A stretch of 20,000 bases of DNA from an uncultured virus (IMG/VR IMGVR_UViG_3300002161_000007) (IMGVR_UViG_3300002161_000007:55021-75020), one strand, 5' to 3'; counted from the stretch's first letter, positions 2,288 through 20,000 are shown. Made by a program: numbers and translations. Notes: generated from the sequence alone by a model not told the origin.

Positions 2288-2534
2288 AATGGATTTTGAC
2301 TCGTGGCTTAAAATAGGTTTAGAGAATAAATGGGTTGGTCCCCCAGTGTGCTCAACACATGATGGGCTACCTTCAACCGAGGACGAAGACTCGGCATGGG
2401 ACGAGGGCGAAGATCCTTGCATTCACATTTTGCGTCTTTATGTAGATGACCTTGAAGCACTGCTCGTAGAGCAGAACCACAGCCCGTCAGTATGGCGTAA
2501 GGCTGGCTGGGAAGACTTACCAAAAGACGAATGA
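2280..2534 (+). CDS. Hypothetical phage protein (84 aa; start revised to MSEMDF)
   Basis: ATG at 2280 overlaps the previous stop; CSTHDG...DPCIH motif; ATGA overlap with the next gene. Confidence 0.75.
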   Translation: MSEMDFDSWLKIGLENKWVGPPVCSTHDGLPSTEDEDSAWDEGEDPCIHILRLYVDDLEALLVEQNHSPSVWRKAGWEDLPKDE

Positions 2535-6366: not shown

Positions 6367-6399
6367 ACATAACGTACACAAACAAGTAGGATGTACACA
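6364..6399 (+). promoter_or_regulatory. SigA-type promoter driving a leaderless transcript
   Basis: TAGACA (6364-6369), 17 nt, TAGGAT (6387-6392), 6 nt, then ATG at 6399. Confidence 0.55.
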
Positions 6400-6608
6400 T
6401 GACAAATCAACTACAACCCGAACACTTGGCAGGCACTAGTGAGATCGCTGTAATACTTGGCGTAACCAAACAGCGCATCCACGCCTTGCGTAAGCAGAAG
6501 AAGTTCCCACAACCGATCGCAAACTTGGCATCCACACCAATTTGGGATAAGCGTGACATTCAAGCATTCCTTGCTGAGTGGCGTCCATGGAAGGTCACAC
6601 CACAATGA
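6399..6608 (+). CDS. AlpA/excisionase-like helix-turn-helix DNA-binding protein
   Basis: LAGTSEIAVILGVTKQRIHAL...FPQPI.......W pattern. Confidence 0.75.
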   Translation: MTNQLQPEHLAGTSEIAVILGVTKQRIHALRKQKKFPQPIANLASTPIWDKRDIQAFLAEWRPWKVTPQ

Positions 6609-6742
6609 GCGACAAACGCCATTACGAATGCCCGCAATGCGGGAAGGTCATCACCGTATTTGTGAAGCCCTCGGTGCCACCAACATGCACCAACCCTGAC
6701 AGACATACCAGCGTCACTGTTGAAATGGTGGAGAAGAAGTGA
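6605..6742 (+). CDS. Small zinc-ribbon protein (45 aa, absent from the ORF track)
   Basis: MSDKRHYECPQCGKVITVFVKPSVPPTCTNPDRH...; ATGA overlap at its start and GTGA overlap at its end. Confidence 0.75.
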   Translation: MSDKRHYECPQCGKVITVFVKPSVPPTCTNPDRHTSVTVEMVEKK

Positions 6743-7812
6743 GAATTGGCTTTGCCAGTGGTGACTACGTTCCAGTACAACGCTCCACAGATGGTAAACA
6801 GCATTGGGGTGGCTCGGGCTGGGCACGCATTGGTCAGTATGTGGAGTGGTTGGAGCATTTTGAAAAAGATGTAATTGTAGGAGTGCTCACATGGAACAAG
6901 AACTACTTCTGCATCCGAGGTGCTAACGATGAGTTGATCCCCGTTGACATCATTGTGATGCAACGACTCATGCACGACTCACTAGCCGATCACATTCACA
7001 AGGCTCGTGCTGTTGGACAAATTGTAATTAATGATTTAGACGACTGGTACTGGGGACTTGATCCAGCCAACGATGCATTCATGTCATCGCACCCAAAGAC
7101 CAACCCAAAAGAGAACCGAGATCATTACAAGAAGGTGCTCGCATCCAGCACGCTGGTCACCGTGTCAACTCCGTATCTTGCCGATCGCATCAAGTCGTTT
7201 GTGCATTGCCCAATCATCACATTGGAGAACACGGTAGACATCTCACGGTTTACTCCACATGTGCACACCGATAGTTCTGTTCCTGTAGTTGGGTGGGTGG
7301 GAGCCACGAGCCATCGCTCCAGTGACTTAGAGATCATGAAGGGGATCATCAACCCTTTAATCGCTAACAACGAGATTAAGTTCCATCACAGCGGTCACTA
7401 CTCGCATGCACCATCAGTTGCCAGCAAGTTAGGACTGCACGAAGATCAGGTGACTGTTGCGAATGCAGTGGACGCCAAAGAATACCCATCGCTGTTGACC
7501 ATGGACGTGGGTATCGCACCACTGCGTGATACGCCATTCAACCATGCCAAGAGCGACATCAAGTTGTTGGAGTACTCCTCCTCGGGGATTCCATGGGTTG
7601 GTTCATCTCTTTCAGCGTATGAGGCTTTGCGTGATAGTTGGGGAGTTGGTCGTACTGCGAGTAAACCATCGCAGTGGCTCAAGCATCTGAGGGATCTTCG
7701 GGATCCAGTCAGGCGAGCAGACGAGGGAGAGGCTTTGAGAGAAGCGGTGCGCTCACGAGACATCAGCCTCGGAGCACACCGCCTCAACTTACTTATTGAA
7801 GATCTTTCCTAG
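6739..7812 (+). CDS. Glycosyltransferase, GT-B fold (GT4-like)
   Basis: IIVMQR, DLDD, VTVST..LA, VGWVG..SH..DL, DVGIAPL....FN..KS.IKLLEYS..GIP. Confidence 0.85.
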   Translation: MRIGFASGDYVPVQRSTDGKQHWGGSGWARIGQYVEWLEHFEKDVIVGVLTWNKNYFCIRGANDELIPVDIIVMQRLMHDSLADHIHKARAVGQIVINDLDDWYWGLDPANDAFMSSHPKTNPKENRDHYKKVLASSTLVTVSTPYLADRIKSFVHCPIITLENTVDISRFTPHVHTDSSVPVVGWVGATSHRSSDLEIMKGIINPLIANNEIKFHHSGHYSHAPSVASKLGLHEDQVTVANAVDAKEYPSLLTMDVGIAPLRDTPFNHAKSDIKLLEYSSSGIPWVGSSLSAYEALRDSWGVGRTASKPSQWLKHLRDLRDPVRRADEGEALREAVRSRDISLGAHRLNLLIEDLS

Positions 7813-8154
7813 ATTCAGGCGATCAACCTTTTCAAGAGACTGCATATCTCTGCCACCCCATACGCCCCAGCGGATGTCGTTCTTGACGGCATAGCGTAGG
7901 CATTGGAATGAAACAGGACAGCCTTGGCATATCTCAATGGCTTGCTTTCTTTTTAATCGTATTTCTTTGTTATGCCCTACTAATCCAGTAGCAAAGAAAG
8001 TAGTTGTGTCTTCATGTCGGCATGACGCATATTTGCGCCATGTACCTACTTCGGGGAACGGTAAAGGATCCATGATCTCTTTGTTAATGATTGTAGGTAC
8101 ATGAAGCGGGGGATTTGACTCCCCCGCATCGTTGTAGTAATCCCAGCGGTTCAT
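7789..8154 (-). CDS. whiB: Second WhiB-family transcription factor
   Basis: W...ASC...FF...AIEICQGCPVSFQCLRYA...WGVWGG; ATGA overlap with the upstream gene (true start could be later). Confidence 0.88.
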   Translation of the reverse strand: MNRWDYYNDAGESNPPLHVPTIINKEIMDPLPFPEVGTWRKYASCRHEDTTTFFATGLVGHNKEIRLKRKQAIEICQGCPVSFQCLRYAVKNDIRWGVWGGRDMQSLEKVDRLNLGKIFNK

Positions 8155-9173
8155 ACGAGGACTACATCCTCCAAGATCCGAATGACCTGACGGTCAAACT
8201 CATCGGTCTTGCCGTTGAGTGCATTCATTGCGTTGCGCTCAACACGGCTGTCGTCCTTGCCACTCATGTGGTGTTGGTAGGTGTTGAATGCTTGCAACAC
8301 TCCGAGACCAGTTCCCATCCATGGAGCGACTCGTGGGTCGTTCTTGTAGAGGTGACGGATCGCTTCCTGCTTGTTCTGTGAGCGACTGATCGCTTGTGGG
8401 CGAGCCTCACCTTCGGTACCAACAGGCACGAGACGATCCACGATGGCGTCCCACTCGGACTGGGTCACAGTGATTGACGAGAGGCGCTCAATCTCAAGCG
8501 ACACCTCATCAGCCATGCTGTGAATGATTCCGAGAGCGTCACGGATGTCTTGAATGCGTCCGTTGCTGTACTTGCTGTGACGAGTCTTGAACTCTGATCC
8601 CTGCTCACCGAGCGCTCCAGCGAGCGTGTTGTCGCAGACCACGGCGGTGACGACTCGCTTGAATGTTGTGGCAAGCGTGCCGTTGTGGCTCGTAGTTGCG
8701 AGCAAGTGTGGACGGAACTCAAAGCCCGCCTTGGTGCTGATTGTCTCAGGCATCTCAATGCTGACCCATGCGACACCGCCACTGCGAAGCAAGCCCGCAG
8801 AACCGATCTGCAAGTTGCTGTCATCAATCACGTTTGCCACGGTGCCGAGCAACCACTCCTCGTACTGGTGGATCTGATACGAATCCTTGAAGAGACCAAG
8901 CGTCTCGTAGTTGTCGTCACGAACGATTGCCTTGCGGTCATCCTGTGGGATGTACTTGAAGGTGCCATTGTTAGGCACTTGCACGAACACTGGTGCTTCA
9001 ATTGCCTTCCAGTGGAACAGACGACGCTTGACATCTTCAACAGGGATTGCCTGCTCGTAATGGTTTGGCTCAGTTCCCTGATCGGTTGCCTTGTAGTGCC
9101 ATGCGTTCCCACGCTTGGATGTAAAGCCCACCAATACATTTTGGTTGAGCCACTGGCTGGTTTCTCTTGACAT
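8151..9173 (-). CDS. DUF932 / phage-plasmid LGT_TIGR03299-like protein
   Basis: N-terminal AWH, SAGLLRSGGVAW, LLATTSHNGT, VVCDNTL, RH motifs; AAGGAG SD. Confidence 0.8.
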   Translation of the reverse strand: MSRETSQWLNQNVLVGFTSKRGNAWHYKATDQGTEPNHYEQAIPVEDVKRRLFHWKAIEAPVFVQVPNNGTFKYIPQDDRKAIVRDDNYETLGLFKDSYQIHQYEEWLLGTVANVIDDSNLQIGSAGLLRSGGVAWVSIEMPETISTKAGFEFRPHLLATTSHNGTLATTFKRVVTAVVCDNTLAGALGEQGSEFKTRHSKYSNGRIQDIRDALGIIHSMADEVSLEIERLSSITVTQSEWDAIVDRLVPVGTEGEARPQAISRSQNKQEAIRHLYKNDPRVAPWMGTGLGVLQAFNTYQHHMSGKDDSRVERNAMNALNGKTDEFDRQVIRILEDVVLV

Positions 9174-9224
9174 GATGTTTCTCCTTGTTGTTTGAGTTAT
9201 TTGGTTTGTTGTACCACTGAGATA

Positions 9225-9253
9225 AAACTACCTCCGTGGGACGGGAATTGCAA
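9225..9253 (-). promoter_or_regulatory. SigA-type promoter for the DUF932-whiB pair
   Basis: Minus strand TTGCAA (9253-9248), 17 nt, TAGTTT (9230-9225). Confidence 0.5.
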
Positions 9254-9262
9254 CTTCTGTTC

Positions 9263-9547
9263 TTATTTTGTGGGAAGGTCAATGACCTGCCCGTTTTGGA
9301 TGGTTGACCCGTAGGTCTCTACTAGGTCATTGACGGCGGACTCTATGTTGCCCGAGCAATTGCTCATAGCGATTTCCCACAGGGTCTCACCGTATGACAC
9401 GGTGTGTTGCTTTGTATTGCAGATATATGAATCCATATGCTCCGCAGACTCTTGGATTAAGAAATACACGAACGCTGTCACGAGCATCGCAAGGAACCCG
9501 TAGAACGCCCATGTAATTCTGTAATTGAGTTTTGTGTAGTCCTTCAC
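9263..9547 (-). CDS. Membrane-anchored LysM-domain protein
   Basis: N-terminal TM helix; HTVSYGETLWEIA...IQNGQVIDLP; AAGGAG SD with GTG start. Confidence 0.8.
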   Translation of the reverse strand: MKDYTKLNYRITWAFYGFLAMLVTAFVYFLIQESAEHMDSYICNTKQHTVSYGETLWEIAMSNCSGNIESAVNDLVETYGSTIQNGQVIDLPTK

Positions 9548-9702
9548 ACTTTCTCCTTAAGTTTGATGATTGCGGACAAGATGTCCTCTAATGACTTTGC
9601 TGGTAACACAAGACCTAAGTCGTACTTGAACCATGTAAACGCCATGATTCCCAATTCGTCTTGGATTTGGTTTACTAACTCAACTGTCCTCATGTTGCTC
9701 AT
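9544..9702 (-). CDS. Hypothetical protein (52 aa, absent from the ORF track)
   Basis: MSNMRTVELVNQIQDELG...KEKV; GGAGG SD; 4-nt overlaps at both ends. Confidence 0.7.
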   Translation of the reverse strand: MSNMRTVELVNQIQDELGIMAFTWFKYDLGLVLPAKSLEDILSAIIKLKEKV

Positions 9703-9854
9703 TGCTCTACCTCCTTGATGTCTATGATTTCTATGAATGACCCCAGTGTCAACAGCGCCTCTACGAGACGGATTGCATCGGGAGCATTGGTTGGTTCATC
9801 CAAGTCACAGCGCTTGCGCACTGTGACCTGAAGTGTGAATTCGGTGGTGCTCAT
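9699..9854 (-). CDS. Hypothetical protein (51 aa; start revised to MSTTEF)
   Basis: ATGA overlaps at both ends. Confidence 0.65.
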   Translation of the reverse strand: MSTTEFTLQVTVRKRCDLDEPTNAPDAIRLVEALLTLGSFIEIIDIKEVEQ

Positions 9855-10432
9855 GACAGAGCATTCTTGAGTAGAAGATAATCTCCGCCTTGCTCCATCC
9901 ATTCAATGAGCCTGTTTGGTTCAGGTGTGAGCACCGAGATACCCATGCTAAACACATTGCTCGTTGGATCAGCCACGATGGCGATTGGTATGTCGCCATA
10001 GTCAACTTCACCTGTCAGCAAGCGTTCAGCCCACTGATTGAATATCTGTTTCTTGTCAGCGATTGGGTCACCCCAGCCACCAGTTGTCCAGCCAGCCATG
10101 ATCTCTGTCCAGCCTTCAATGGTGGTCTCGTAGTGACCACGCCAGTCACTTGACTGGATGTACTCACGATTGATCGTGAGGTTGGTGTTGTACAGGTCAT
10201 CGCCGTACTCGTCCATGCGAATGTGGTCTCCGATGTAGTACTTGCGTACTGCACCATCGTGCACAAGTTGCACAGTTGACGAGTGGTTCTGATCGGACTC
10301 GTAGCAACCCCAGCAGAGGTAACCATCGTGTACATTGCTCCAGCCATGGTCACCATCGGTGTCCACGATTTCGCTACATTCACAGCACTCGTCCTTCAGA
10401 AGTTCTTTCACTTCTTGTTGAATTTCATCCAT
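9851..10432 (-). CDS. Acidic hypothetical protein with N-terminal zinc-finger-like CxxC pairs
   Basis: CCEC...CWGC; GGAGG SD; TAATG overlap. Confidence 0.8.
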   Translation of the reverse strand: MDEIQQEVKELLKDECCECSEIVDTDGDHGWSNVHDGYLCWGCYESDQNHSSTVQLVHDGAVRKYYIGDHIRMDEYGDDLYNTNLTINREYIQSSDWRGHYETTIEGWTEIMAGWTTGGWGDPIADKKQIFNQWAERLLTGEVDYGDIPIAIVADPTSNVFSMGISVLTPEPNRLIEWMEQGGDYLLLKNALS

Positions 10433-10635
10433 TACTTTGCCTCCATTACTTTGAGTAACTCGTTGGTTGTTGTGTTCTTCAATTCAATGCGACCCTTTGC
10501 CCACATGTCCTTGGTCTTTGCTTGATCAAGGATGTAGAAGATTGCAGTCATTGTTGCTTCGTTGTCATCCACATCGGTGAATGTGTGTGCCTTCACTTTG
10601 CCTAAGCGCTGTGCGGTTATTTGATAGGTGTTCAT
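10432..10635 (-). CDS. Hypothetical protein (67 aa)
   Basis: AAGGAG SD; coupled overlaps. Confidence 0.75.
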   Translation of the reverse strand: MNTYQITAQRLGKVKAHTFTDVDDNEATMTAIFYILDQAKTKDMWAKGRIELKNTTTNELLKVMEAK

Positions 10636-10844
10636 GCTGTCTCCTTTTTGGTCTTGTTCATTCTTCCGTTAAACCATGCTTCTACTTTGTCCCATTCCCA
10701 AAACAGTCCTGCACTGAGTACAAGACATGGCTCGGGGAATCCGATGTTTCGCATTCTCCATTGGTGCACGATCGTTGAGTGTGCTCGTTGGAGCCTGTCA
10801 GCGATCTCGTTGGCACCAACGATGTTGGCTGTGTCAATCATCAT
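10632..10844 (-). CDS. AlpA-like HTH DNA-binding protein (start revised)
   Basis: IVGANEIADRL...VHQWR....FPEP.......FW; TAATG overlap at 10844. Confidence 0.7.
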   Translation of the reverse strand: MMIDTANIVGANEIADRLQRAHSTIVHQWRMRNIGFPEPCLVLSAGLFWEWDKVEAWFNGRMNKTKKETA

Positions 10845-11140
10845 TAGAAGCCCCATTCCTCTTCGCTGGTGTCAATGAATGAGTCAAGGTGGTGTGCATT
10901 CACCACTGCCCACGCTGGAGCAACTGGCTGACCCCTCCACATGATGCCATCGGGGAGCGTGACATTGGTGTCGTGCTCACCTTCGGTGACCAATTGAATT
11001 GCGACCACACATGGATCAACCATGTTGAGTGGTACTGGTGGATAGTGATTGCTTTGCAGGTGCCATGCGAGCGCCTGTCGTAGTTCAATCATTCCGTCTT
11101 CCACGGCTTCCGCCATGCCTAGTGCGTTGATGCTTCCCAT
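10844..11140 (-). CDS. Hypothetical phage protein (98 aa; start revised to MGSINA)
   Basis: TAATG overlap at 11140; WHLQSNHYPPVP segment. Confidence 0.75.
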   Translation of the reverse strand: MGSINALGMAEAVEDGMIELRQALAWHLQSNHYPPVPLNMVDPCVVAIQLVTEGEHDTNVTLPDGIMWRGQPVAPAWAVVNAHHLDSFIDTSEEEWGF

Positions 11141-11274
11141 TACTTTGCCTTCCTTCTGTCTCTGAACATGTCTACTGCCCGTGTTAATACGATCCCCCAA
11201 CCGATCCCAATTACAAAAAACACAAAGCAATCAATTGCGTAACCGCTTATGTGAATGGTGAATCCGTTATCCAT
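11140..11274 (-). CDS. Small single-pass membrane protein (44 aa, absent from the ORF track)
   Basis: MDNGFTIHISGYAIDCFVFFVIGIGWGIVLTRAVDMFRDRRKAK; AGGAGG SD; TM segment plus basic tail. Confidence 0.7.
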   Translation of the reverse strand: MDNGFTIHISGYAIDCFVFFVIGIGWGIVLTRAVDMFRDRRKAK

Positions 11275-11282
11275 GTGCCCTC

Positions 11283-11489
11283 CTAAAGGCTCTTTGTTTG
11301 AATGTTGTTTGCTTTGCGGTACTCATCGCACGCATGTGCGAAGAATGCTTTGATGTCAGCCACTGAGGCTTCAGTCTTCAACTTCTGCATGTCGGGATAC
11401 ATCTCTGTGTCCCAGCAGAAGTTGTGTACTTGCTCGGCTTCCATGTCGGTAATGCCGAGCATCATGACCATCATGTCTCGGAGCCTCAT
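11283..11489 (-). CDS. Hypothetical protein (68 aa; start revised to MRLRDM)
   Basis: GGAG SD; ATGA overlap. Confidence 0.7.
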   Translation of the reverse strand: MRLRDMMVMMLGITDMEAEQVHNFCWDTEMYPDMQKLKTEASVADIKAFFAHACDEYRKANNIQTKSL

Positions 11490-11731
11490 ACTGCATCTCC
11501 GAGCCATAGACGGTCTTCATCGTCAACCCGAACGGTACGACCGTCCAGTGTCTGCACTTCTTCCACTACCCAGTCCAATGACGCTTGACCTGAGAGCAGT
11601 TGCTTAGTCAATGCATCCACAACATCTTCTATGTTGAGGTCTCCCGCAAGCAATGTTGCAGGGTCACTTGCATTGACTCCCTCTAGATACACGCCCGTTT
11701 GGAGCGAGATACTTACATTCCATTTATTCAT
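11486..11731 (-). CDS. Hypothetical protein (81 aa), first gene of a cassette
   Basis: Preceded by the SD hairpin at 11733-11750. Confidence 0.8.
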   Translation of the reverse strand: MNKWNVSISLQTGVYLEGVNASDPATLLAGDLNIEDVVDALTKQLLSGQASLDWVVEEVQTLDGRTVRVDDEDRLWLGDAV

Positions 11732-11853
11732 GATGACCTCCTCAGATCATTGTTGTTGACAGGTGTTACAAGGTTGCTTCACCCCGTGAGCACTTCCCAA
11801 GGCGGATCAAGGGAAGTGCTCACGGGGTGACACCAGCCGAGGCTGATGTCACC
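11732..11853 (-). repeat. Cassette leader, type B variant (20-bp perfect inverted repeat plus SD hairpin)
   Basis: TCACCCCGTGAGCACTTCCC/GGGAAGTGCTCACGGGGTGA at 11779-11830; hairpin 11826-11853; ATGATCT-GAGG-AGGTCAT. Confidence 0.8.
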
Positions 11854-11868
11854 TTTCGTACGAGCCTC

Positions 11869-12120
11869 TCAGGACTCGTTTAACGATGTTTCAATCCAAT
11901 CTAAGTCAATGTTGTACAGATATACGACATGACCCTCAGGTGCATAGAACTTGATGTAAGCGCCCGAGTCGTCATCTTCAAACTGCTCATTGACACTGCC
12001 GATGTACTTCATCTTGGACAGTTGTTCTTGCCCGTAGTACTCATTGGTATTGACAGAGGGGATCAAGAGATTCGCCTCCACCAAGTCCCTGCGCACTACT
12101 GGGTAACCACCGAGGATCAT
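11869..12120 (-). CDS. Hypothetical protein (83 aa; start revised to MILGGY)
   Basis: GGAGG SD; ATGA overlap. Confidence 0.75.
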   Translation of the reverse strand: MILGGYPVVRRDLVEANLLIPSVNTNEYYGQEQLSKMKYIGSVNEQFEDDDSGAYIKFYAPEGHVVYLYNIDLDWIETSLNES

Positions 12121-12317
12121 TGCTCGCCTCCACAACGGCAGTTGCCATTGCATGGTGCGAATTGAGTTTGCCGACTGTCCCAGCCGTTCTCAGCACACTT
12201 GACGCACCTCCACACATTCAGAGGTAAGTCAGGCGCTGGACGGAAGTCATGGTGACACAGGATCACCGCTGTTGGAGTCTCTCCCGTGCGATTGAAATAT
12301 TCCATGACGCTCTGCAT
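12117..12317 (-). CDS. Cys-rich small protein
   Basis: CHH...CVKC...CNGNCRC; TGATG overlap. Confidence 0.7.
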   Translation of the reverse strand: MQSVMEYFNRTGETPTAVILCHHDFRPAPDLPLNVWRCVKCAENGWDSRQTQFAPCNGNCRCGGEQ

Positions 12318-12526
12318 CAGAACACATCCACTGCGATGATCTTTGAGAGTGCGATGTCAATCTCACGCTCGTTCTCGTAGGTGTCGTATGGGCTGTCGCT
12401 AGTCCACATTGACAACTCGGTGTCGCTGATTCGTGAGACGATTCCTGAGTAGTCAAATGTCTCTATCGGAGAGATCTGCACGGATACTTCTACTTCGTCT
12501 CCTACTGCCACATTGATTGTTTTCAT
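12317..12526 (-). CDS. Hypothetical protein (69 aa)
   Basis: AAGGAGG SD; ATGA overlap. Confidence 0.75.
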   Translation of the reverse strand: MKTINVAVGDEVEVSVQISPIETFDYSGIVSRISDTELSMWTSDSPYDTYENEREIDIALSKIIAVDVF

Positions 12527-12882
12527 TTGTTGCCTCCTTCAAGGTCTAACACTGTTTCGTACATGTCTTCGTTGCTGATTACTTGAATTTCGTACTTGGT
12601 GTTGAAGTCATCGTCCCACTGGTTCTCAGTTATGAAATAACCGATGCGGTTAACGATGTGTCGTCCAGCGATGATGTATGTGCCTTCCTCGCCGTCCACA
12701 TATGTCCATGTGTAATGCAATGGCTGATCAAACACATGGTCAACTTCGGCACCGTATGTTTCAAACATGATGCCGTTGCCATCATCGTCTGACCACGATG
12801 CGTTGTCATCTAGGTGATTGTTGACAGGCTTGAACTTTGCCTCCCATTCTTCAACAGACATTTTGATTACTGGTTGTATCAT
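12523..12882 (-). CDS. Hypothetical phage protein (119 aa), first gene of a cassette
   Basis: FKPVNNH...MFETYG...WT...G.HIVNRIGYFITE; SD hairpin upstream. Confidence 0.8.
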   Translation of the reverse strand: MIQPVIKMSVEEWEAKFKPVNNHLDDNASWSDDDGNGIMFETYGAEVDHVFDQPLHYTWTYVDGEEGTYIIAGRHIVNRIGYFITENQWDDDFNTKYEIQVISNEDMYETVLDLEGGNK

Positions 12883-12992
12883 CTGACCTCCTCAGGTCTT
12901 TAGGGATTAACTAATTTATCGGGTACTAGGTACCCTCACAACACACAAACAGAATTTATGTGCTGTGAGAGCACCACGAGCCGAAGCCCGTG
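12883..12992 (-). repeat. Cassette leader, type B
   Basis: CACGGGC-TTCG-GCTCGTG; long stem 12929-12975; GGGTAC-CTA-GTACCC; GACCT-GAGG-AGGTC. Confidence 0.85.
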
Positions 12993-13001
12993 ATGCCCCG
13001 A

Positions 13002-13259
13002 TCAGGCAACATCCTCCCACCATGTCTGTGGCATGTAGAAGTATCCGCCTTCGTGCCAGCCGAATGAGTGACCGTCAGTAGCGACTTGGTCATTCAGCCA
13101 TTCCGTGGCTACCTGTTCTTGGTACCACGAGTCCTCAATGTCGGTGGGCTGGCGCCCATCCCACCCAAGTTCTCGTGCAATCCTGCACGCTTCCATGGCG
13201 CTGTACACGCCATGGTGGTCGTCAACTAACAACCCAGTGCCGATCATGACCTTGCTCAT
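13002..13259 (-). CDS. Hypothetical protein (85 aa)
   Basis: GGAGGT SD; ATGA overlap. Confidence 0.75.
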   Translation of the reverse strand: MSKVMIGTGLLVDDHHGVYSAMEACRIARELGWDGRQPTDIEDSWYQEQVATEWLNDQVATDGHSFGWHEGGYFYMPQTWWEDVA

Positions 13260-13543
13260 TGCTCTACCTCCATGTCAGCGAGCACGAATGGGATCTTGTA
13301 GTCAATGTCGTACGACAAGACATTGAAGTCTTCGCCGTTGTTGCCTACGAGTGACTTGAGTTCCTCTTCTCCGCCTTCGCAGTAGAAGAAGACCTCATCG
13401 TCTCGGTTGCCCAGCGAGTCGTACTCGCCGTTCCACTCGTTCTCATTCCATGTGCCAAACGAGATGTACACCTCGCTTTCGTCCTGCGTGTCCTTCCACT
13501 GGATGATTGCCCATGCACCAATTGGTGTTCCGATATTGCTCAT
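13256..13543 (-). CDS. Acidic hypothetical protein (95 aa; start revised to MSNIGT)
   Basis: AAGGAG SD; TAATG overlap. Confidence 0.75.
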   Translation of the reverse strand: MSNIGTPIGAWAIIQWKDTQDESEVYISFGTWNENEWNGEYDSLGNRDDEVFFYCEGGEEELKSLVGNNGEDFNVLSYDIDYKIPFVLADMEVEQ

Positions 13544-13782
13544 TAGAACTCTCCTTGTTCTGTGATGTCGTAATTGAGGTATGTCCACACATCTTGGTTG
13601 ACGCTGTCGTAACCACCGTTGGCGTCAAACACTTCAACAGCCCTGAGCCATTCTTCTGAATCTGCCGACAATGTTTCATCATTGTCACCAATGGTGAACA
13701 GGTTTGCTTCCCACCAAGAGATAGCGATCTCTTCGTCAGGATTGATCTCACTCAATAATTTAATTGCGTGACTTACTTTCAT
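13543..13782 (-). CDS. Acidic hypothetical protein (79 aa), first gene of a cassette
   Basis: SD hairpin upstream. Confidence 0.8.
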   Translation of the reverse strand: MKVSHAIKLLSEINPDEEIAISWWEANLFTIGDNDETLSADSEEWLRAVEVFDANGGYDSVNQDVWTYLNYDITEQGEF

Positions 13783-13865
13783 GGTGCCTCCTCAGGCTTT
13801 GTTTACTTCGGCGGTATTGCCTTGTCCCCAGTCGGAATTGAATCCGCACGCCTGTAGCGCTGGGG
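13783..13865 (-). repeat. Cassette leader, type A (tRNA-like core 13826-13865)
   Basis: CCCCAG-CGC-TACAG-GCG-TG-CGGA-TTCAAT-TCCG-A-CTGGGG-AC; GCCT-GAGG-AGGC. Confidence 0.9.
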
Positions 13866-13872
13866 GATCTCT

Positions 13873-14088
13873 CTAGAAGCCGTTCTTGTCACAGATCTTG
13901 CTGAGAGCGCCAATGACCTTGTCCTCTACAGCGAGATACTGCTCAAGAGAACCCCATGGATAGATGCCATCGTCACCGAGTCGGTTGTGAATCGCTTCCA
14001 TGCCGTCTCGCACCAACTGGTACAGGATGTCCAGTTCGGATCCACGGCGATCAATGCCTCCGTTGAGAGTGATATTTAAGTTGTACAT
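13873..14088 (-). CDS. Hypothetical protein (71 aa), single-gene cassette
   Basis: Flanked by leaders on both sides. Confidence 0.8.
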   Translation of the reverse strand: MYNLNITLNGGIDRRGSELDILYQLVRDGMEAIHNRLGDDGIYPWGSLEQYLAVEDKVIGALSKICDKNGF

Positions 14089-14188
14089 GGTGACCTCCTC
14101 AGGTCTTGAATGAACATCGGGTGATGTTCTGACAGTACATCAACGGTGTGTCAATGTACTGTCAGAACACCACGGGCTTGCGCCCGTG
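14089..14188 (-). repeat. Cassette leader, type B
   Basis: CACGGGC-GCAA-GCCCGTG; long stem GTTCTGACAGTACAT/ATGTACTGTCAGAAC; GAACATC-ACCC-GATGTTC; GACCT-GAGG-AGGTC. Confidence 0.85.
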
Positions 14189-14272
14189 ATGAACTGTGGT
14201 GGCTCCCGTGAGGACAAGAGTGCACCGATTGTCGCTTGTAACGCTGACCATGAAGCGCTACAGCGCCCACGA

Positions 14273-15796
14273 TTATCCGTTACCAACGATCCCGTCAATG
14301 AGGGCTTGCGTAATGCTTCCACCCTCTGCACCCATGTCTTCACCGTGACCTGTCAAGACAGCCGATACCGTCTCGTGCTTGGCGTTGAGTAGTGCCCACA
14401 TGCGATCGTCCACTGTTGGGATCTCGCTTGTGTCATCTACAGCCAACAACCACCACGCAACGACTGCGTTGTCTTGACCGATGCGGTGTGCACGGTCTTC
14501 TGATTGCACTGCTTCCGCTGGTGTCCATGGCACTTCAGCGAACACCACATGCGATGATGCGGTCAATGTAAGACCGACACCAGCACTTGTGAATTGTCCG
14601 ATGAACACCTTGGCGTCACCTTGTTGGAATGCGTCAACTGCTTCCTGCTTCTGCTCATCGGTAAGACCGCCAGCCACCTTGACTACGCCGTGCTTGTTAA
14701 GAGCACTGGCTAAGCCTGCGATGACATCTCGGTGATGTGCGAACACGATGACCTTCTCGCCTTGAGCGACAAGTTCTTCTACATGCTCAACCACATACGG
14801 GATCTTGGCGATACCGAGCAACTTGCGCAGTGCGTTGAGGCGAGTGATCACCTCAGCCTTGGATGCCTTCTGCCATGCCTCGGCACCGCCATTGGCGATG
14901 ACGAAGTCACGGAAGTCATTCTCGGCGTGACGGTATGTAGCGAGATCATCTTCTGTGATCTCTACCGCCACTTGAGCACGGCGCTTCGCTGGGAGTTCCT
15001 TCAACACATCTGACTTGTTACGCCTCACATAGCAGATGCCACGCAATTTGTCGTTCAACTCAGTGGTGTTGCTGGCTCCGTTGTACACATAACCCCATCC
15101 ATTGTGGATTGGATCACAGTAACGAAACAGGAATGCGTTGCGTCCACCGAACCCTCTGTCCAGTCTGTCAATGATTGACAGCGGAGCAACGAGTTCGCTT
15201 GGACGATTCACGATGATGGTGCCACTGAGCAATACCACATACCCCTCAGTCGGAATTGACTTGGCGATGTATGCAATACCCTTAGTGCGACCTGACTTCG
15301 CATTCTTCGCACGGTGTGCCTCATCAACGATGAGCGCTCCAAACTTGCCAGCCAACTTGAGTGACCACAGGTCAACATTGCTGTCACCAATGATCACCAC
15401 ATCAGCCTTAGGTATGGCACCGACACGACTGCCCTTCACCACGGCTACAGAGAGCCACGGTGCGAACTGCTTGAATGAGCGAACCCAGTTGGTGCGCAAT
15501 GACGGAGGCACCACGACAAGCACCTTGTGCTTCTCATTGACAGCCTGCACAGCCACTGCGATGCCCTGCGGAGTCTTGCCCAGCCCCATCTCGTCACCGA
15601 TGATGACACGGCGTTGCTTGATTGCATACGCCACGCCAGCACGCTGGAACGGGAAGAGAGGTTGAGCGAGATCTACAGCGACCTCACCATCGTGAGCGCT
15701 ACTAAGAGCAAGGAGTGATGGGTCAGCAGTGATTGCTGGCGCAACACGATCAAGCCCCGATAGCAATGCACTCAGTCCTTCTAGTTGTGTATTCAT
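14273..15796 (-). CDS. SNF2-family (SMARCAL1/HARP-like) helicase/ATPase
   Basis: FQ, DEMGLGKT, VVVPP, DEAH, SGT, GVGLTLT, QSEDRAHRIGQ. Confidence 0.93.
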   Translation of the reverse strand: MNTQLEGLSALLSGLDRVAPAITADPSLLALSSAHDGEVAVDLAQPLFPFQRAGVAYAIKQRRVIIGDEMGLGKTPQGIAVAVQAVNEKHKVLVVVPPSLRTNWVRSFKQFAPWLSVAVVKGSRVGAIPKADVVIIGDSNVDLWSLKLAGKFGALIVDEAHRAKNAKSGRTKGIAYIAKSIPTEGYVVLLSGTIIVNRPSELVAPLSIIDRLDRGFGGRNAFLFRYCDPIHNGWGYVYNGASNTTELNDKLRGICYVRRNKSDVLKELPAKRRAQVAVEITEDDLATYRHAENDFRDFVIANGGAEAWQKASKAEVITRLNALRKLLGIAKIPYVVEHVEELVAQGEKVIVFAHHRDVIAGLASALNKHGVVKVAGGLTDEQKQEAVDAFQQGDAKVFIGQFTSAGVGLTLTASSHVVFAEVPWTPAEAVQSEDRAHRIGQDNAVVAWWLLAVDDTSEIPTVDDRMWALLNAKHETVSAVLTGHGEDMGAEGGSITQALIDGIVGNG

Positions 15797-15893
15797 GGTC
15801 TGTTTACCTCCTCAGGTAATTGTTAGTGGACTTGCGTCCTCACAACACATCAGTTGCCCGATGTGCTGTGAGGGCGCCACACCTTGCGGTGTG
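15797..15893 (-). repeat. Cassette leader, type B
   Basis: CACACC-GCAA-GGTGTG; long stem 15834-15877; GGAC-GCAA-GTCC; TTACCT-GAGG-AGGTAA. Confidence 0.85.
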
Positions 15894-15904
15894 ACATCCT
15901 CGGG

Positions 15905-16630
15905 CTAGAAGCCCAATCGCTTTGCGCAGTCGTTGCCGATGCCACGCTTGCGTGTGACCTCATCGGTCAAGTGACGCCCGCACACACCACACCGCCCGAT
16001 CTCTTGACCGTACAGTGCCTGTGCATCCATGCGTTCTTGATCGCTGAGCGCAAGTAGACGCTTCACAGCGTTCACTGCACGCTCACCGTGTAGTCGCTCG
16101 TCACGATGACCACCCACGACCATGTAGATCGCACGCTGACCCTTGAGGCTTGCGTTATGCACGCCCTTGTTGGTCTTCACTGCGTAGAACACGAGATCGT
16201 TGGCGCCAGTTGATGACAGTGCGTAGAACCCATCGGCAAGTGTGCCGAAGAGTTCGTTGGTCACCGTCACTGGACGAGCAACAGGCTCCGATGAGCATTC
16301 ACCAGCCTTGTGGAATGTCTGCCACTTGCCACTGATGAGCAATGCGTGACCAGCACCGACAGGTACAGGATGCCCGCACAATGTGCACGGGTTCGCATAC
16401 TTGTTGACGATGGTGCGCTCTGCCTTAGGCAAGTGGTCAGTGCCCACACGCTTGACCTCAATCTTCTTGATTGCGTCAATGGCGAACGATGCTGACTTGC
16501 TGGACAACTCATTCAACTTCTGATCAATGATGTACTGGTCAACACCAGCCTCATCAAGACCGAGTGTTGAAGCACGCTCTAAGAGCATCGTGCGAATGAA
16601 TGCCTGTTGCTTTGGTGTTATTGCACCCAT
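15905..16630 (-). CDS. DUF6011-like zinc-finger protein
   Basis: ITPKQ..FI N-terminus; NKYANPCTLCG...H...C; C-terminal CGVCGRHLTD......GIGNDC. Confidence 0.75.
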   Translation of the reverse strand: MGAITPKQQAFIRTMLLERASTLGLDEAGVDQYIIDQKLNELSSKSASFAIDAIKKIEVKRVGTDHLPKAERTIVNKYANPCTLCGHPVPVGAGHALLISGKWQTFHKAGECSSEPVARPVTVTNELFGTLADGFYALSSTGANDLVFYAVKTNKGVHNASLKGQRAIYMVVGGHRDERLHGERAVNAVKRLLALSDQERMDAQALYGQEIGRCGVCGRHLTDEVTRKRGIGNDCAKRLGF

Positions 16631-16738
16631 GGTAAGAACCTCCTCAGATTCTGTTTTGTTGTACTGAATGGACTTGCGTCCTCGGAATGCACCGATGGGG
16701 GATCAGTGCACTCCGAGCACGCCATGGCTTGCGCCATG
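16631..16738 (-). repeat. Cassette leader, type B
   Basis: CATGGC-GCAA-GCCATG; long stem 16676-16722; GGAC-GCAA-GTCC; AGAATCT-GAGG-AGGTTCT. Confidence 0.85.
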
Positions 16739-16757
16739 ACTGCCCACTGCTACTTAC

Positions 16758-17012
16758 TCACGCATTGGCGAGTTGGGAAGTGAGTTCTGCGATTGCCTTC
16801 CATAACACTGTGTCAATGTCAGCGGTGTCACTGATAAAGAGCGTGATCGTGGACTCCAGTTTTGCGTAACCGAATGACTCTTTGTCCTGCTCCCACTGGG
16901 GACGGCTGAACGCCAAGTCTTCGTACTCAATCACGAGATCAATCGTGTGAAGTCGTGAGTCACCAGTTTTCTCAATCCGAAACCCAGTTACTTTGTGAAT
17001 AGTTGCATCCAT
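16758..17012 (-). CDS. Hypothetical protein (84 aa; start revised to MDATIH)
   Basis: ATG directly follows the SD hairpin; the ORF-track extension runs through the leader. Confidence 0.8.
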   Translation of the reverse strand: MDATIHKVTGFRIEKTGDSRLHTIDLVIEYEDLAFSRPQWEQDKESFGYAKLESTITLFISDTADIDTVLWKAIAELTSQLANA

Positions 17013-17115
17013 GGTTGACCTCCTCGGGTCTGTTAGTTGAACGGGCAATTGTATGCCCTCACAATGCACCGACACAACGCCGATGCACTGTGAGGGCACC
17101 ACGGGCGAACCCGTG
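17013..17115 (-). repeat. Cassette leader, type B
   Basis: CACGGG-TTCG-CCCGTG; long stem 17054-17098; GGGCA-TACAAT-TGCCC; GACCC-GAGG-AGGTC. Confidence 0.85.
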
Positions 17116-17125
17116 ATGCTCCCGA

Positions 17126-17344
17126 TCACGCACTGTGATCAACTGAGTGGTCGTACCCCTCGGGGTACCACGCATCACCGCATGTCGCACAGGTGTATCC
17201 ATCGGGGTATCCGATGTCGTACGCCTCAGCGAACTCCAGTGTCTCACCTTCACGAAGTGACTCGGCTTGGTAGTAGTCGGCGCACACAAGGCACACCAAC
17301 GCACCATCGTCCATCACTTTGCCAATTACGACTGGGCTAGTCAT
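17126..17344 (-). CDS. Small zinc-finger protein (72 aa; start revised to MTSPVV)
   Basis: CLVC...CATC; GAGGA SD; 8-nt overlap with the upstream gene. Confidence 0.75.
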   Translation of the reverse strand: MTSPVVIGKVMDDGALVCLVCADYYQAESLREGETLEFAEAYDIGYPDGYTCATCGDAWYPEGYDHSVDHSA

Positions 17345-17657
17345 TGTCCTCGTCCTCCTCCACATAGCCTGCTGGCATTGTGATGGATGGGAAGTAGACA
17401 ACGGCTTCATCACGACCCATGCTGTCTTGACGCACATCGTAAAGAAGTGCCCTTGTCAGGGCTTGACCTTTACTGCCCAAGTCAGCGAGTGCCGATCCGA
17501 GGATCAAGAATGTTGATGCCACATCTTCGGTCACAATGCCGAGGCATTGAGCGCCATACATCGCACGACCCGAGTACTCCATTACGGAACCCGCTTCATA
17601 CATGTCCAGTGTGTCAGTGATCTGTTCTAGATCCCAGTCGGTCAGTTGATAACTCAT
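17337..17657 (-). CDS. Hypothetical phage protein (106 aa), first gene of a cassette
   Basis: YSGRAMYG..CLGIV...RQDSMG....VYFP; SD hairpin upstream. Confidence 0.8.
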   Translation of the reverse strand: MSYQLTDWDLEQITDTLDMYEAGSVMEYSGRAMYGAQCLGIVTEDVASTFLILGSALADLGSKGQALTRALLYDVRQDSMGRDEAVVYFPSITMPAGYVEEDEDND

Positions 17658-17742
17658 GGCTATACCTCCTCAGGTATTTTGTAGTGAGCGGTTGCTCACA
17701 GTCCCCAGTACCGATTGAACGGTCACGCCTAAAGCGCTGGGG
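17658..17742 (-). repeat. Cassette leader, type A (core 17703-17742)
   Basis: CCCCAG-CGC-TTTAG-GCG-TG-ACCG-TTCAAT-CGGT-A-CTGGGG-AC; ATACCT-GAGG-AGGTAT. Confidence 0.9.
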
Positions 17743-17749
17743 GAATTGG

Positions 17750-18040
17750 TTAGTAAGAACCCCAATTTTCTTCATCGGTGACGATGTCTCGCACGACATC
17801 AGGACTGATACCGCACTTGATCAAGAATGCGCTGTTTTCTTCTGCCGTTCGGCAGTCAACGATTACAGCGTCATCCATGCCGAGTTGATCCGCAAGTGAT
17901 TGCCACAGCATCCACAGAGCGATATGTGCACGCTCATGGTGCATCACCCGCCAGACTCCGAGACTTCTTGGTGACATGGAATCAAAGTGCGCATGCCTGC
18001 GAATTGCTTTTGCAATTGTGTCTTCTATTCCGAATTTCAT
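17750..18040 (-). CDS. Hypothetical protein (96 aa), single-gene cassette
   Basis: Flanked by leaders on both sides. Confidence 0.8.
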   Translation of the reverse strand: MKFGIEDTIAKAIRRHAHFDSMSPRSLGVWRVMHHERAHIALWMLWQSLADQLGMDDAVIVDCRTAEENSAFLIKCGISPDVVRDIVTDEENWGSY

Positions 18041-18130
18041 GGCTATACCTCCTCAGGTATTTGTATTCACGACACTGGCGTGTCGCTAGTCCCTAGTCCG
18101 AATTGAATCGGCACGCCCAAGGCGCTAGGG
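18041..18130 (-). repeat. Cassette leader, type A (core 18091-18130)
   Basis: CCCTAG-CGCC-TTG-GGCG-TG-CCGA-TTCAAT-TCGG-A-CTAGGG-AC; ATACCT-GAGG-AGGTAT. Confidence 0.9.
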
Positions 18131-18140
18131 GAACGCTCAC

Positions 18141-18521
18141 TCACCCGTAGACGATGTCACCGAGCACTGCGTACTGCATGATGTTGTCAGCACCGCATGC
18201 GTCAAGGTCTTCGTGGTTGATATCCCAACCACGGGACACGAGCGCACCGTACGCCATGGCGATGTCATTCATTGACAACTTGGCGCTTTTGATGCTGGCT
18301 GGTGCTGGGAAGGTGTCCCGATCGTAACGATCAGGGTTCTCAACACCCACCAAGATGAACTTCTCACTCGGGTCAGTTGGAAGATTGTCATCGCTGTAGC
18401 CGTTCAGGTATCCGAACGCCTCCCACCAAGACCATCCCAACCACCCCGAACCGAGAACTGCGGACATGAACTCTTCCGCATCCAGTCGGACGGTGACTGT
18501 AAGTGTTGTTGCTGTTTTCAT
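18141..18521 (-). CDS. Hypothetical phage protein (126 aa; start revised to MKTATT)
   Basis: ATG follows the SD hairpin; C-terminal DLDA..AD.IMQYAVLGDIVYG. Confidence 0.8.
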   Translation of the reverse strand: MKTATTLTVTVRLDAEEFMSAVLGSGWLGWSWWEAFGYLNGYSDDNLPTDPSEKFILVGVENPDRYDRDTFPAPASIKSAKLSMNDIAMAYGALVSRGWDINHEDLDACGADNIMQYAVLGDIVYG

Positions 18522-18603
18522 GGTTGACCTCCTCAGGTCGCTTACTTCGGCGGGAATGCCTTGTCCCGTGTTGCGATTGAACGCCACACCTAAAGTGCAC
18601 GGG
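18522..18603 (-). repeat. Cassette leader, type A (core 18565-18603)
   Basis: CCCGTG-CAC-TTTAG-GTG-TG-GCG-TTCAAT-CGC-AA-CACGGG-AC; GACCT-GAGG-AGGTC. Confidence 0.9.
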
Positions 18604-18616
18604 GGAGTCGCTCACA

Positions 18617-19156
18617 TCACACAAGTGATGTGATCTTCTCACTGATTAATTGCAGAGTCTCAATGCGAAGAGTCATGAGGTCATCGTTGAGTTTGTTCCA
18701 CTCGGCATCGGTAACCGTTGGGCTACTGATGTGTCGGATGATGCCATTGACTGCCTGTTGCTTGGAGCCAGCACGCTCAATCTTTTCTTGGTGGTAAGCC
18801 TTCGCCTCGGCATCCTGTTGAGCGACCCATTCTTGAATGGTGGTCGCTTCCCAGTGAGCCATGTGAGACTGGATCTCTCGTGCTGACACCTTGCGAGTTG
18901 CCAAGCCGTACACAGGCTCTCGGTTGTCATTGGCACCCTCACTGCGCAAGTAACCACGGAAATATGTGTGGTGAGTCACAGCGAATACGAACTCAATGCG
19001 AGTGCCTGTCCGCCTGTAGTTGTCGTACACGGGAACCTCACGCTCAATCACTTCCGTGATTGATCCGTAACTCGTGCCACGACCGAAGCGTTGCTTGATC
19101 ACGAATATTGCATTCGGATCCTTGGCAATGATCTGCTTGATGTCTGATGTTTTCAT
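18617..19156 (-). CDS. Hypothetical protein (179 aa), single-gene cassette
   Basis: Flanked by leaders on both sides. Confidence 0.8.
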   Translation of the reverse strand: MKTSDIKQIIAKDPNAIFVIKQRFGRGTSYGSITEVIEREVPVYDNYRRTGTRIEFVFAVTHHTYFRGYLRSEGANDNREPVYGLATRKVSAREIQSHMAHWEATTIQEWVAQQDAEAKAYHQEKIERAGSKQQAVNGIIRHISSPTVTDAEWNKLNDDLMTLRIETLQLISEKITSLV

Positions 19157-19244
19157 GGTTGACCTCCTCNGGTCTTATNNTCACGACACTGGCGTGTCGC
19201 TAGTCCCCAGTCCCGATTGAACGGGCACGCCCTAGGCGCTGGGG
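19157..19244 (-). repeat. Cassette leader, type A (core 19205-19244)
   Basis: CCCCAG-CGCC-TAG-GGCG-TG-CCCG-TTCAAT-CGGG-A-CTGGGG-AC; GACCN-GAGG-AGGTC. Confidence 0.9.
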
Positions 19245-19268
19245 GATACTCACTCACTCAGTTTCTGA

Positions 19269-19589
19269 TCACTCACGCTCAATGCTTGCGATGTGCTTCA
19301 AGATCTCACGCTTGGCTTTACGCAATGTGTAAAGTTCCGTGAACTCTTTGCTGAAGTCATTCAACTTCTGCGTGGCGAACGGAAGGCTCCAATTGATCCT
19401 CCAATCGGCGTCTTCGTTGGTCGCATCAATCGTGACTGGCTCCAGTTGGGTGAGCAGTTCGGCAAAGAACTTGGCGTAATCGGAGACAATTCCGATGTAG
19501 TTAAGCGACCGAAGTCTGTCCTCCATCTGTTTGATCTGCCAGTCAAGAAACATAAGTGCTACTTGATCAGGTGTTGATGTGCTGTCCAT
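19269..19589 (-). CDS. Helical hypothetical protein (106 aa), single-gene cassette
   Basis: Flanked by leaders on both sides. Confidence 0.8.
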   Translation of the reverse strand: MDSTSTPDQVALMFLDWQIKQMEDRLRSLNYIGIVSDYAKFFAELLTQLEPVTIDATNEDADWRINWSLPFATQKLNDFSKEFTELYTLRKAKREILKHIASIERE

Positions 19590-19672
19590 GGTTGACCTCC
19601 TCAGGTCGTTGTAGTGAGCGGTCGCTCACAGTCCCCAGTGCTCATTGAAGAGCCACGACCTAGTCGCTGGGG
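19590..19672 (-). repeat. Cassette leader, type A (core 19633-19672)
   Basis: CCCCAG-CGAC-TAG-GTCG-TG-GCTC-TTCAAT-GAGC-A-CTGGGG-AC; GACCT-GAGG-AGGTC. Confidence 0.9.
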
Positions 19673-19691
19673 GAATGCGTTGCGGGATTAC

Positions 19692-19904
19692 TTAACGCAC
19701 TTTGTACTTGACGCAACTTGGGCACAAGGCTCGCTGTGCCCTTGTGGTTGATGACGGCACGAATCTCCAGTTGCCTGTGAATGGATTCTTGCGGGTCATG
19801 TCCTCTATCAACGATGTCACCGTTGTGTAGGTGTGGACTCCAGTTGCTTTGCACCCGTTGCAATGTGCTCGGTATGCATTACTTCCGTGTTCCCTCTTAA
19901 TCAT
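19692..19904 (-). CDS. Small zinc-finger protein (70 aa), single-gene cassette
   Basis: CNGC...CPSC; flanked by leaders. Confidence 0.8.
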   Translation of the reverse strand: MIKREHGSNAYRAHCNGCKATGVHTYTTVTSLIEDMTRKNPFTGNWRFVPSSTTRAQRALCPSCVKYKVR

Positions 19905-19989
19905 GGTGTGCCTCCTCAGGCATATTCACGGAGCGTTCGCTCCGCTAGTCCCCAGTGCGAATTGAATCGCCACGGCTGAACCGCTGGGG
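19905..19989 (-). repeat. Cassette leader, type A (core 19950-19989)
   Basis: CCCCAG-CGG-TTCAG-CCG-TG-GCGA-TTCAAT-TCGC-A-CTGGGG-AC; TGCCT-GAGG-AGGCA. Confidence 0.9.
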
Positions 19990-20000
19990 GGAAGAACTCA

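Follow-up and report, generated by a model that had tools for sequence, protein, structure and literature searches.

The described systems closest to the locus analysed here are the start-associated sequence (SAS) and extended start-associated sequence (ESAS) repeats of cluster K mycobacteriophages and the promoter early stem-loop (PeSL) elements of T4-type phages. SAS repeats carry the core of a Shine-Dalgarno (SD) sequence a few bases before start codons, are biased towards ATG, occur in one orientation, and lie in the non-structural half of an actinophage genome. The SAS is a fixed 13-mer with symmetric outer bases (GGG...CCC); SAS/ESAS are often preceded by inverted repeats, and their function was called unverified in 2025. 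For the 17-bp imperfect repeats of the ESAS, the authors found no support for RNA pairing and favoured DNA-binding proteins. PeSL elements (PMC4122927; see also PMC2839356) are composite stem-loops that place signals, an SD and a start codon between small open reading frames (ORFs) of unknown function in a plastic region. Here we analyse the last 20 kb (positions 55021-75020, hereafter the window) of the 75,020-base uncultured virus record IMGVR_UViG_3300002161_000007, in which 13 genes are each preceded by a hairpin that encloses the SD and forms the 3' end of a modular, covarying intergenic RNA. These hairpin arrays resemble both described systems, the PeSL elements in that an upstream stem-loop leads to an SD and a start codon at the 3' end, and belong to neither.

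On the minus (gene) strand, each hairpin consists of a 5' arm, a GAGG loop and a 3' arm that starts with AGG, and its GGAGG lies 4-10 nucleotides (nt) upstream of an ATG. The final three bases of GGAGG are paired, and the loop exposes GAGG. A first-pass annotation of the window had placed 13 such hairpins, and all 13 pairs of coordinates were reproduced exactly. GACCU-GAGG-AGGUC is found at 12885-12898 (before a gene of 119 amino acids (aa), 12523-12882), 14092-14105 (71-aa gene, 13873-14088), 18526-18539 (126-aa gene, 18141-18521) and 19594-19607 (106-aa gene, 19269-19589), and AUACCU-GAGG-AGGUAU at 17662-17677 (106-aa gene, 17337-17657) and 18045-18060 (96-aa gene, 17750-18040). UUACCU-GAGG-AGGUAA at 15804-15819 precedes a gene for an SNF2-type helicase (14273-15796), UGCCU-GAGG-AGGCA at 19909-19922 a 70-aa gene (19692-19904), and the 4-bp GCCU-GAGG-AGGC at 13786-13797 a 79-aa gene (13543-13782). 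Two 7-bp stems contain one U.G pair each, as had been annotated: AUGAUCU-GAGG-AGGUCAU at 11733-11750 (81-aa gene, 11486-11731) and AGAAUCU-GAGG-AGGUUCU at 16635-16652 (DUF6011 gene, 15905-16630). Two further copies deviate at the innermost pair. GACCC-GAGG-AGGUC at 17017-17030 (84-aa gene, 16758-17012) has a C.A mismatch there, which leaves 4 bp and a 6-nt loop, and GACCN-GAGG-AGGUC at 19161-19174 (179-aa gene, 18617-19156) has an N in the record. In order of position, the stems measure 7, 5, 4, 5, 6, 7, 4, 6, 6, 5, 4, 5 and 5 bp.

The core of the motif, CCTCCTCRG, is found 13 times in the window where 0.18 occurrences would be expected; none of 200 shuffles reached 13. Twelve of these matches are hairpins; the remaining match (7577) precedes no gene, and the pattern misses the hairpin that bears the N. 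When all 75,020 bases of the record are searched, every match but two strays falls between 66.7 and 75.0 kb on the minus strand. In five related viral records of 95-97 kb, rated 99-100% complete, the motif clusters within a single stretch of ~8-9 kb, always on the same strand, and between one and four further matches lie elsewhere. Apart from these strays, the motif is confined to one arm of the genome, here and in the complete relatives alike. That other SD sites in the window lack the hairpin, as the annotation had it, is nearly right: the internal genes of small operons (starts 12526, 13259, 13588 and 12317, for example) have SDs without it. The exceptions are a 14th, variant hairpin, GCCUU-UAGG-AGGGC, at 11277-11290 on the minus strand before a 44-aa ORF (11140-11274), an allele counted 11 times in relatives, and the major capsid gene, which lies outside the window. 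The SAS itself was sought as its 13-bp consensus GGGATAGGAGCCC with up to 2 mismatches; the window holds one match (15902-15914, plus strand, at no gene start) against 0.26 expected, and 48 of 200 shuffles contain at least one. The SAS lies 3-7 bp before the start, and we counted the spacing of 4-10 nt seen here as agreeing with this; the bias towards ATG, the single orientation and the restriction to the non-structural half of the genome are shared as well.

Unlike the fixed SAS, the arms of these hairpins covary. When the 5' arms were re-dealt among the 13 copies, the observed outer pairing was reached in 0 of 20,000 permutations, and the same permutation among the 12 distinct arm pairs also gave 0/20000. 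We collected relatives through the SNF2-type helicase of the arm, which yielded 51 loci on viral contigs, and scored a hairpin wherever an NAGGAGG site had a stem of at least 4 pairs closed by a loop of 4 nt. Among the 36 loci whose helicase is at least 68% identical, the hairpin is present at 312 of 471 gene-strand sites, and in the 15 more distant loci (identity at most 52%) at 1 of 35; on the opposite strand it is absent from every site in all 51 loci. Related leaders keep the complementarity of the 5' arm: there are 24 arm alleles, all of them paired, with compensatory changes, and they include GACCU/AGGUC, GCCU/AGGC, GUCCU/AGGAC, AUCCCU/AGGGAU, CUCCU/AGGAG, GAAUCU/AGGUUC and UGAAACUU/AGGUUUUA.

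To score covariation, we used the 128 distinct GGAGG sites that follow spacers of at least 60 nt, selected blind to pairing. The score was 0.266 compared with 0.135 in shuffles (0/500), and it exceeded every slid control too. At these sites the fourth pair is AU in 84, GC in 17, UA in 5 and CG in 2, and the fifth is GC in 62, UA in 22, AU in 7 and CG in 6; U.G pairs, which are valid on the gene strand only, fill 13 and 19 cells at the two inner pairs. The hairpin is a sense-strand RNA structure that is maintained by compensatory change. These data bear on the idea that the repeat acts as DNA or is a passive by-product, be it an inverted repeat for a dimeric protein, a CCTNAGG palindrome, or a sequence merely carried along when spacers were duplicated. 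In favour of it, CCTGAGG is an interrupted palindrome, and the spacer modules have clearly spread by copying and recombination. However, the arms differ within one genome and still stay complementary, with a pairing that beats all shuffles; the U.G pairs would become C.A mismatches on the other strand; and the pairing of the outer arms spans a loop of 4 nt and not the 7-bp palindrome. We consider this the least probable of the explanations discussed here.

The hairpin is restricted to genes that follow long spacers. In the relatives' loci, for which gene calls are rough, the canonical form is present at 130 of the 160 distinct GGAGG sites that follow a spacer of at least 60 nt. The other 30, by our reading, include 15 variants (six with an innermost C.A, seven with enlarged loops in the relative L012, one with an N, and one in a shifted register). 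By comparison, GGAGG sites of genes that overlap or abut the previous gene have the hairpin in 7 of 62 cases. Among 170 distinct contexts, 165 use ATG as the start codon, and the base that follows GGAGG is T in 105 of 143 sites. The 5 nt upstream of the stem are rich in A (49-72%) and poor in G (2-16%), with no fixed motif. The dinucleotide before GGAGG is GA at 136 of 143 hairpin sites; at coupled sites it is most often AA, and GA in 4 of 57. Across the 24 alleles the arms vary freely while the loop stays constant, and the GA of the loop is constrained far beyond the needs of SD function.

A constant loop between varying arms speaks for a shared translational operator, in which a phage or host RNA-binding protein or nuclease would recognise the stem and the GAGG loop and switch, or destroy, all first cistrons together. 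The annotation had proposed such control by one factor. The confinement of the motif to one genome arm points the same way, as do the loops of L012, described below, and T4 RegB and RegA (PMC3014915) are precedents for global control at early SDs. Against an operator, the late capsid gene bears a like hairpin with other loops, and no RNA-binding, CsrA-like or RNase family was recognised in the 23 proteins of the arm or in 70 others of the record; since most of these 93 proteins match no family at all, the missing candidate is weak evidence. Moreover, the complementarity of the exposed GAGG to the anti-SD could by itself explain the constancy of the loop, with no need for a factor. We found no support for a single trans-acting factor and regard an operator as a doubtful explanation.

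CsrA and RegB are analogies only. CsrA/RsmA sites present GGA in a hairpin loop, usually at several sites per leader. Compared with this consensus, the GGA of the hairpins described here straddles the border between loop and stem, each leader has one hairpin, and the Pfam search found no CsrA family in the phage proteins scanned. RegB cuts GGAG in early SDs, secondary structure protects GGAG from it, and its target is an unpaired GGAG followed by an A-rich tract (GGAGRAYARAA), according to PMC3014915; here, AGG, the last three bases of GGAGG, sits in the stem, and T is the usual next base. The phage proteins scanned included none that resembled RegB. The stem also recalls lambda boxB in that five pairs end in C-C-U / A-G-G and the purine-rich loop begins with GA. 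In the lambda nut sites, the boxB loop is GNRNA, of five bases; there are two copies in a genome, each with boxA, and boxB is not an SD. In contrast, the loop described here has four bases, and there are 13 copies, each at a start site.

In L012, an IMG/VR contig of 94,977 bases, 7 of the 12 array hairpins (locus positions 6051-11720) have enlarged loops and intact stems. Five of the changes are due to an added A (CCU-A-GAGG), one to a T to A change, and one to an added T and G.

We folded single hairpins to compare their stabilities. Five full-stem copies lie at -4.7 to -6.0 kcal/mol in spite of stems of 4-7 bp, the longer stems being richer in A-U and G.U pairs; two variant copies lie at -3.5 and -4.0 kcal/mol. 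Alleles seen at least 9 times have -5.5 to -7.4 kcal/mol with flanking bases, and -8.5 to -10.9 kcal/mol at 15 °C. The short SD stem, the narrow range of energies and a seasonal habitat would suit an RNA thermometer that melts with temperature and ties the translation of early genes to the temperature of the lake. However, with its C-G-rich core and the values at 15 °C, the stem would remain closed across lake temperatures. Its pairing strand, CCU plus a variable arm, also appears to lack U-rich fourU-type or ROSE-type pairing. A thermometer is very improbable.

Masking of the SD as a genome-wide habit was considered and rejected, as SD cores are no more likely to be paired than they are after shuffling of the upstream sequence, both within the arm (0.53 vs 0.60) and outside it (0.49 vs 0.53). 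The hairpin therefore sets one defined local pairing and adds no occlusion. An effect on initiation, which the annotation expected from the partial pairing of the SD, is still reasonable to infer because the hairpin pairs three of the five GGAGG bases and compensatory change keeps it so.

The major capsid gene has a comparable hairpin, UAAUCCU-UAGG-AGGAUUA, at G000 16056-16073 (locus L085), upstream of the major head gene at 16078. From 80 capsid loci, we dropped four in which the match began at an unexpected place; the 76 kept represent 57 distinct leaders. A local hairpin of at least 4 pairs that encloses the SD core is present in 46 of the 57, compared with 44% of shuffled upstream sequences. 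The arms of these leaders covary, for example UAUCC/GGAUA, AAUCC/GGAUU and UUUCC/GGAAA. We also inspected Streptomyces phage BRock: neither the 18 leaders examined nor its capsid leader contain such an SD hairpin.

The hairpin identified by the annotation is real, and it belongs to a larger, structured intergenic module, which the annotation did not describe. The 13 spacers measure 90-184 nt from stop to ATG (the last one runs off the end of the record) and sort into two families. When each whole spacer was folded with 33 nt of the ORF, the SD hairpin was part of the minimum-energy structure in 12 of 13 copies, and the spacers formed a row of separate hairpins followed by a single-stranded linker ahead of the SD hairpin.

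Type A, with seven copies of ~40 nt, is a three-way junction with an outer helix (P1) CCCCAG/CUGGGG, a 4-bp hairpin, a hairpin with a UUCAAU loop, and a GGGAC tail; a further hairpin of 6-7 bp follows the junction. The copies lie on the minus strand at 13826-13865 (P1 CCCCAG/CUGGGG), 17703-17742, 18091-18130 (P1 CCCUAG/CUAGGG, compensatory), 18565-18603 (P1 CCCGUG/CACGGG, compensatory), 19205-19244, 19633-19672 and 19950-19989, the last of which is followed by 11 bases before the record ends. Related loci have up to 7 copies. In 55 distinct copies from the window and its relatives, 95.0% of cells are paired compared with 75.6% in shuffles (0/500), and the covariation score is 0.466 compared with 0.141 (0/500). 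Every cell of the outer helix is paired, in CG, GC, UA and AU forms. The third helix reaches only 83.5% because a gap column misplaces 20 rows. The 6-nt UUCAAU loop is identical in all 55 aligned copies.

The hits of two pattern searches were rejected. The exact pattern TTCAATNNNNNACTGGGGAC matched 33 loci in viral contigs, in a search that seems to exclude close relatives; none of them has the junction or an SD-hairpin array, and we treat these as chance matches. A strict junction pattern in one genome per prokaryote species gave 11 hits, about the number estimated for chance, in which the UUCAAU helix has 0-3 of 4 pairs; nine of the hits are similar to one another, as copies of some other conserved sequence would be.

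Type B has five copies and a B-like sixth. Its first helix, H1, of up to ~10 bp, is closed by UUCG, GCAA or a similar loop, of UUCG or GNRA type; H2 (~21 bp) abuts it, and a small H3 follows. The modules, all on the minus strand, are at 12882-12997 (H1 with a UUCG loop, long H2, small H3, A-rich linker, and the SD hairpin at the 3' end), 14089-14193 (H1 with a GCAA loop, then H2, H3, linker and SD hairpin), 15802-15897, 16634-16742 and 17014-17120; their H1-H2-H3 parts span 12899-12997, 14106-14193, 15820-15897, 16653-16742 and 17031-17120. The B-like spacer, at 11751-11868, has two long hairpins and precedes the gene that starts at 11731. RNAalifold, run on 42 of 83 distinct type B copies, predicted these helices, and 22 of the 31 pairs have undergone compensatory changes. 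Many of the pairs are G.U, which would not pair on the opposite strand. The ~21 bp of H2 are long enough for a substrate of a double-strand RNase, and the small third hairpin is often GGACGCAAGUCC. Many upstream genes appear to finish in runs such as TGAGTGAG or TGAGTAAG immediately ahead of the structured element (stops 18141, 19269, 16758 and others).

ARAGORN found no tRNA gene, and type A, with a 6-nt loop in place of a 7-nt T-loop, is no tRNA-like element. Neither type reached the gathering threshold of any family in Rfam 15; six matches had E values of up to 1, all below threshold. The best of these, to the PyrR binding site (41.5 bits against a threshold of 54, E 0.0087), covers window positions 11781-11890 on the minus strand, on the long hairpins of the B-like spacer, and is probably a by-product of its helices. 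The type A and type B motifs, having no Rfam match, are candidates for new RNA families. No multi-helix covarying RNA and no hairpin around the SD are described for PeSL elements in PMC4122927, and the covariation of the upstream elements as RNA also sets them apart from the ESAS.

PeSL elements are further defined by a sigma-70-like promoter (PMC4122927). A scan of window positions 7500-20000 found 7 sigma-70-like sites compared with 10.4 expected, none of them in the 13 spacers; the scan also found no U-tailed terminator within the spacers, and no conserved -10-like motif stands at a fixed distance upstream of the stem. These results bear on transcript-dependent masking of the kind described for T4 e and I-TevI, in which read-through RNA that includes the 5' arm would be translated poorly and RNA started at a promoter within or next to the 5' arm would lack the arm and be translated. 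In T4, the genes e, soc, 49 and I-TevI have the SD held in a helix, which lowers 30S binding, and their hairpins are specific to the gene and depend on a late promoter inside the 5' strand (PMC3014915), unlike the hairpins described here. Each cassette's own spacer could hold a promoter type other than those scanned, and the phage encodes two WhiB-type factors, which would leave room for such masking. However, the spacers show no sigma-70-like promoter. In addition, the module precedes even the first array gene of the relative L009, where the array begins after ~1 kb without a long ORF and the first gene already has a B-like module and GUCCU-GAGG-AGGAC. Masking of this kind is improbable. The module of L009's first array gene also means that these structures are not merely the tail of an upstream gene.

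Among relatives, the same downstream gene is found with different upstream modules; the junction and the third hairpin differ, and the SD-hairpin allele is kept. A gene starting with MKV, for example, has GCCU/AGGC in every case. Some contigs from public DNA runs pass directly from one spacer to the matching point of a neighbouring spacer, leaving out whole cassettes (13803 to 14111, 17031 to 18066, 17746 to 18038, and 17700 to 18563). As they were placed at 85% similarity, these contigs come from related genomes. The joints suggest that cassettes are gained and lost by recombination between spacer modules. PeSL elements mark the ends of insertions and deletions (PMC4122927), and the joints described here, in which relatives are mixed at the similarity given, may be comparable.

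We tentatively favour the reading that the hairpin is a cis-acting start-site module, which would fix the access of ribosomes to, and shield the 5' edge of, each cistron on regulatory cassettes that can be shuffled. The module runs from a very stable element directly after the upstream stop (type A with its hairpin, or H1-H2-H3), through a linker of ~10 nt that is rich in A and C and poor in G, to CCU-GAGG-AGG and the ATG. The hairpin would give each first cistron an equal and moderately stable local structure (about -5 to -6 kcal/mol with any stem length). The tail of the 16S rRNA could nucleate on the exposed GAGG loop and then open the hairpin, and ribosome access would be independent of the structured neighbour next to which a shuffled cassette lands. 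Together with the strong SD, the hairpin may also be a stem-loop that protects the 5' end of the message downstream, probably once the RNA has been cut within the linker. The data directly support the structure, its strand, its covariation, its link to long spacers and its conservation among relatives; the effect on initiation, the processing and the stabilisation are what we infer.

There are precedents for such protection. In Actinobacteria, according to PMC2358910, cleavage of the furA-katG mRNA falls in a single-stranded spacer and a purine-rich SD stabilises the product, and in the gyrase mRNA of M. smegmatis a 5' stem-loop followed by an SD gives protection; 5' stabilisers of Bacillus and phage SP82 mRNAs are treated in PMC7509114. 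As these sources present them (PMC2358910, PMC7509114), 5' stabilisers are single cases with the SD and the stem-loop separate, whereas in this phage the two are fused, covary, and occur at least 13 times per genome.

Several observations weigh against a start-site module. A weaker SD could give modest translation without any hairpin, so that the advantage claimed for the hairpin is argued, not measured. The fixity of the loop GA exceeds what a module acting in cis would strictly require. The enlarged loops of L012 arose by two different mutational routes, for which a changed partner is as plausible as a changed optimum. The test on the capsid leaders is permissive, as 44% of shuffles pass it, and the leaders are related by descent. 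The sole true metatranscriptome contributed two contigs inside the helicase gene, with no readable transcript starts or ends; two cDNA runs are probably DNA.

A bolder alternative combines parts of these readings into an undescribed RNA punctuation system. Types A and B would be sites of processing or anti-termination, and the GAGG hairpin the operator of a dedicated phage or host protein, so far unrecognised, which times or silences all first cistrons together. If this were true, the loop changes of L012 would record co-evolution with that partner protein. We think such a system unlikely, and return to the start-site module as the reading that we tentatively prefer.

The source phage is a freshwater actinophage, a myovirus with WhiB genes, whose cassette arm is transcribed leftward. 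The G+C content of the record is 47%. The plus strand of the record encodes the large terminase, portal, major head protein, tail sheath and baseplate proteins, and its replication genes include a primase, a DNA polymerase and a UvsX-like recombinase. Two WhiB-type regulators in the record point to an actinobacterial host; their genes lie on opposite strands, at window positions 5363-5779 (plus) and 7789-8154 (minus). A queuine tRNA-ribosyltransferase-like gene (window 2531-3967, plus) may, judging by the name of its family, take part in deazaguanine modification of DNA. As the five complete relatives measure 95-97 kb, the 75-kb record is probably incomplete, and it terminates within a spacer element.

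Position 4000-5040 of the relative L009, a region absent from this record, is the ~1 kb without a long ORF and lies between divergent blocks of genes. Its repeats include two copies of GTTATCCACAGG and one inverted copy, and there are several TTGACA words too. The GTTATCCACAGG repeats resemble the DnaA-box consensus, and the region may be an origin.

The closest cultured relatives of the capsid protein are from Streptomyces phages, at ~58% identity, and the arm helicase has distant cultured relatives only. A megablast search of the region against cultured phages gave no match. Among the listed runs of DNA from lake, freshwater or other metagenomes, 17 runs from 12 studies contain the stretch, with 0.29-0.55 of the sampled words. 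A literature search, which did not cover subscription journals and supplements, turned up no report of such a design from freshwater actinophages.

Lake metagenomes contain the lineage widely, and the design is present in 36 related viral contigs. The modules could serve as portable translation starts, indifferent to context, in the engineering of actinobacteria. Start-associated repeats have been known in actinophages since 2011 without a mechanism, and compensatory evidence for a folded RNA narrows the possibilities. The layout also suggests that small early genes are shuffled as units that are ready to be expressed.

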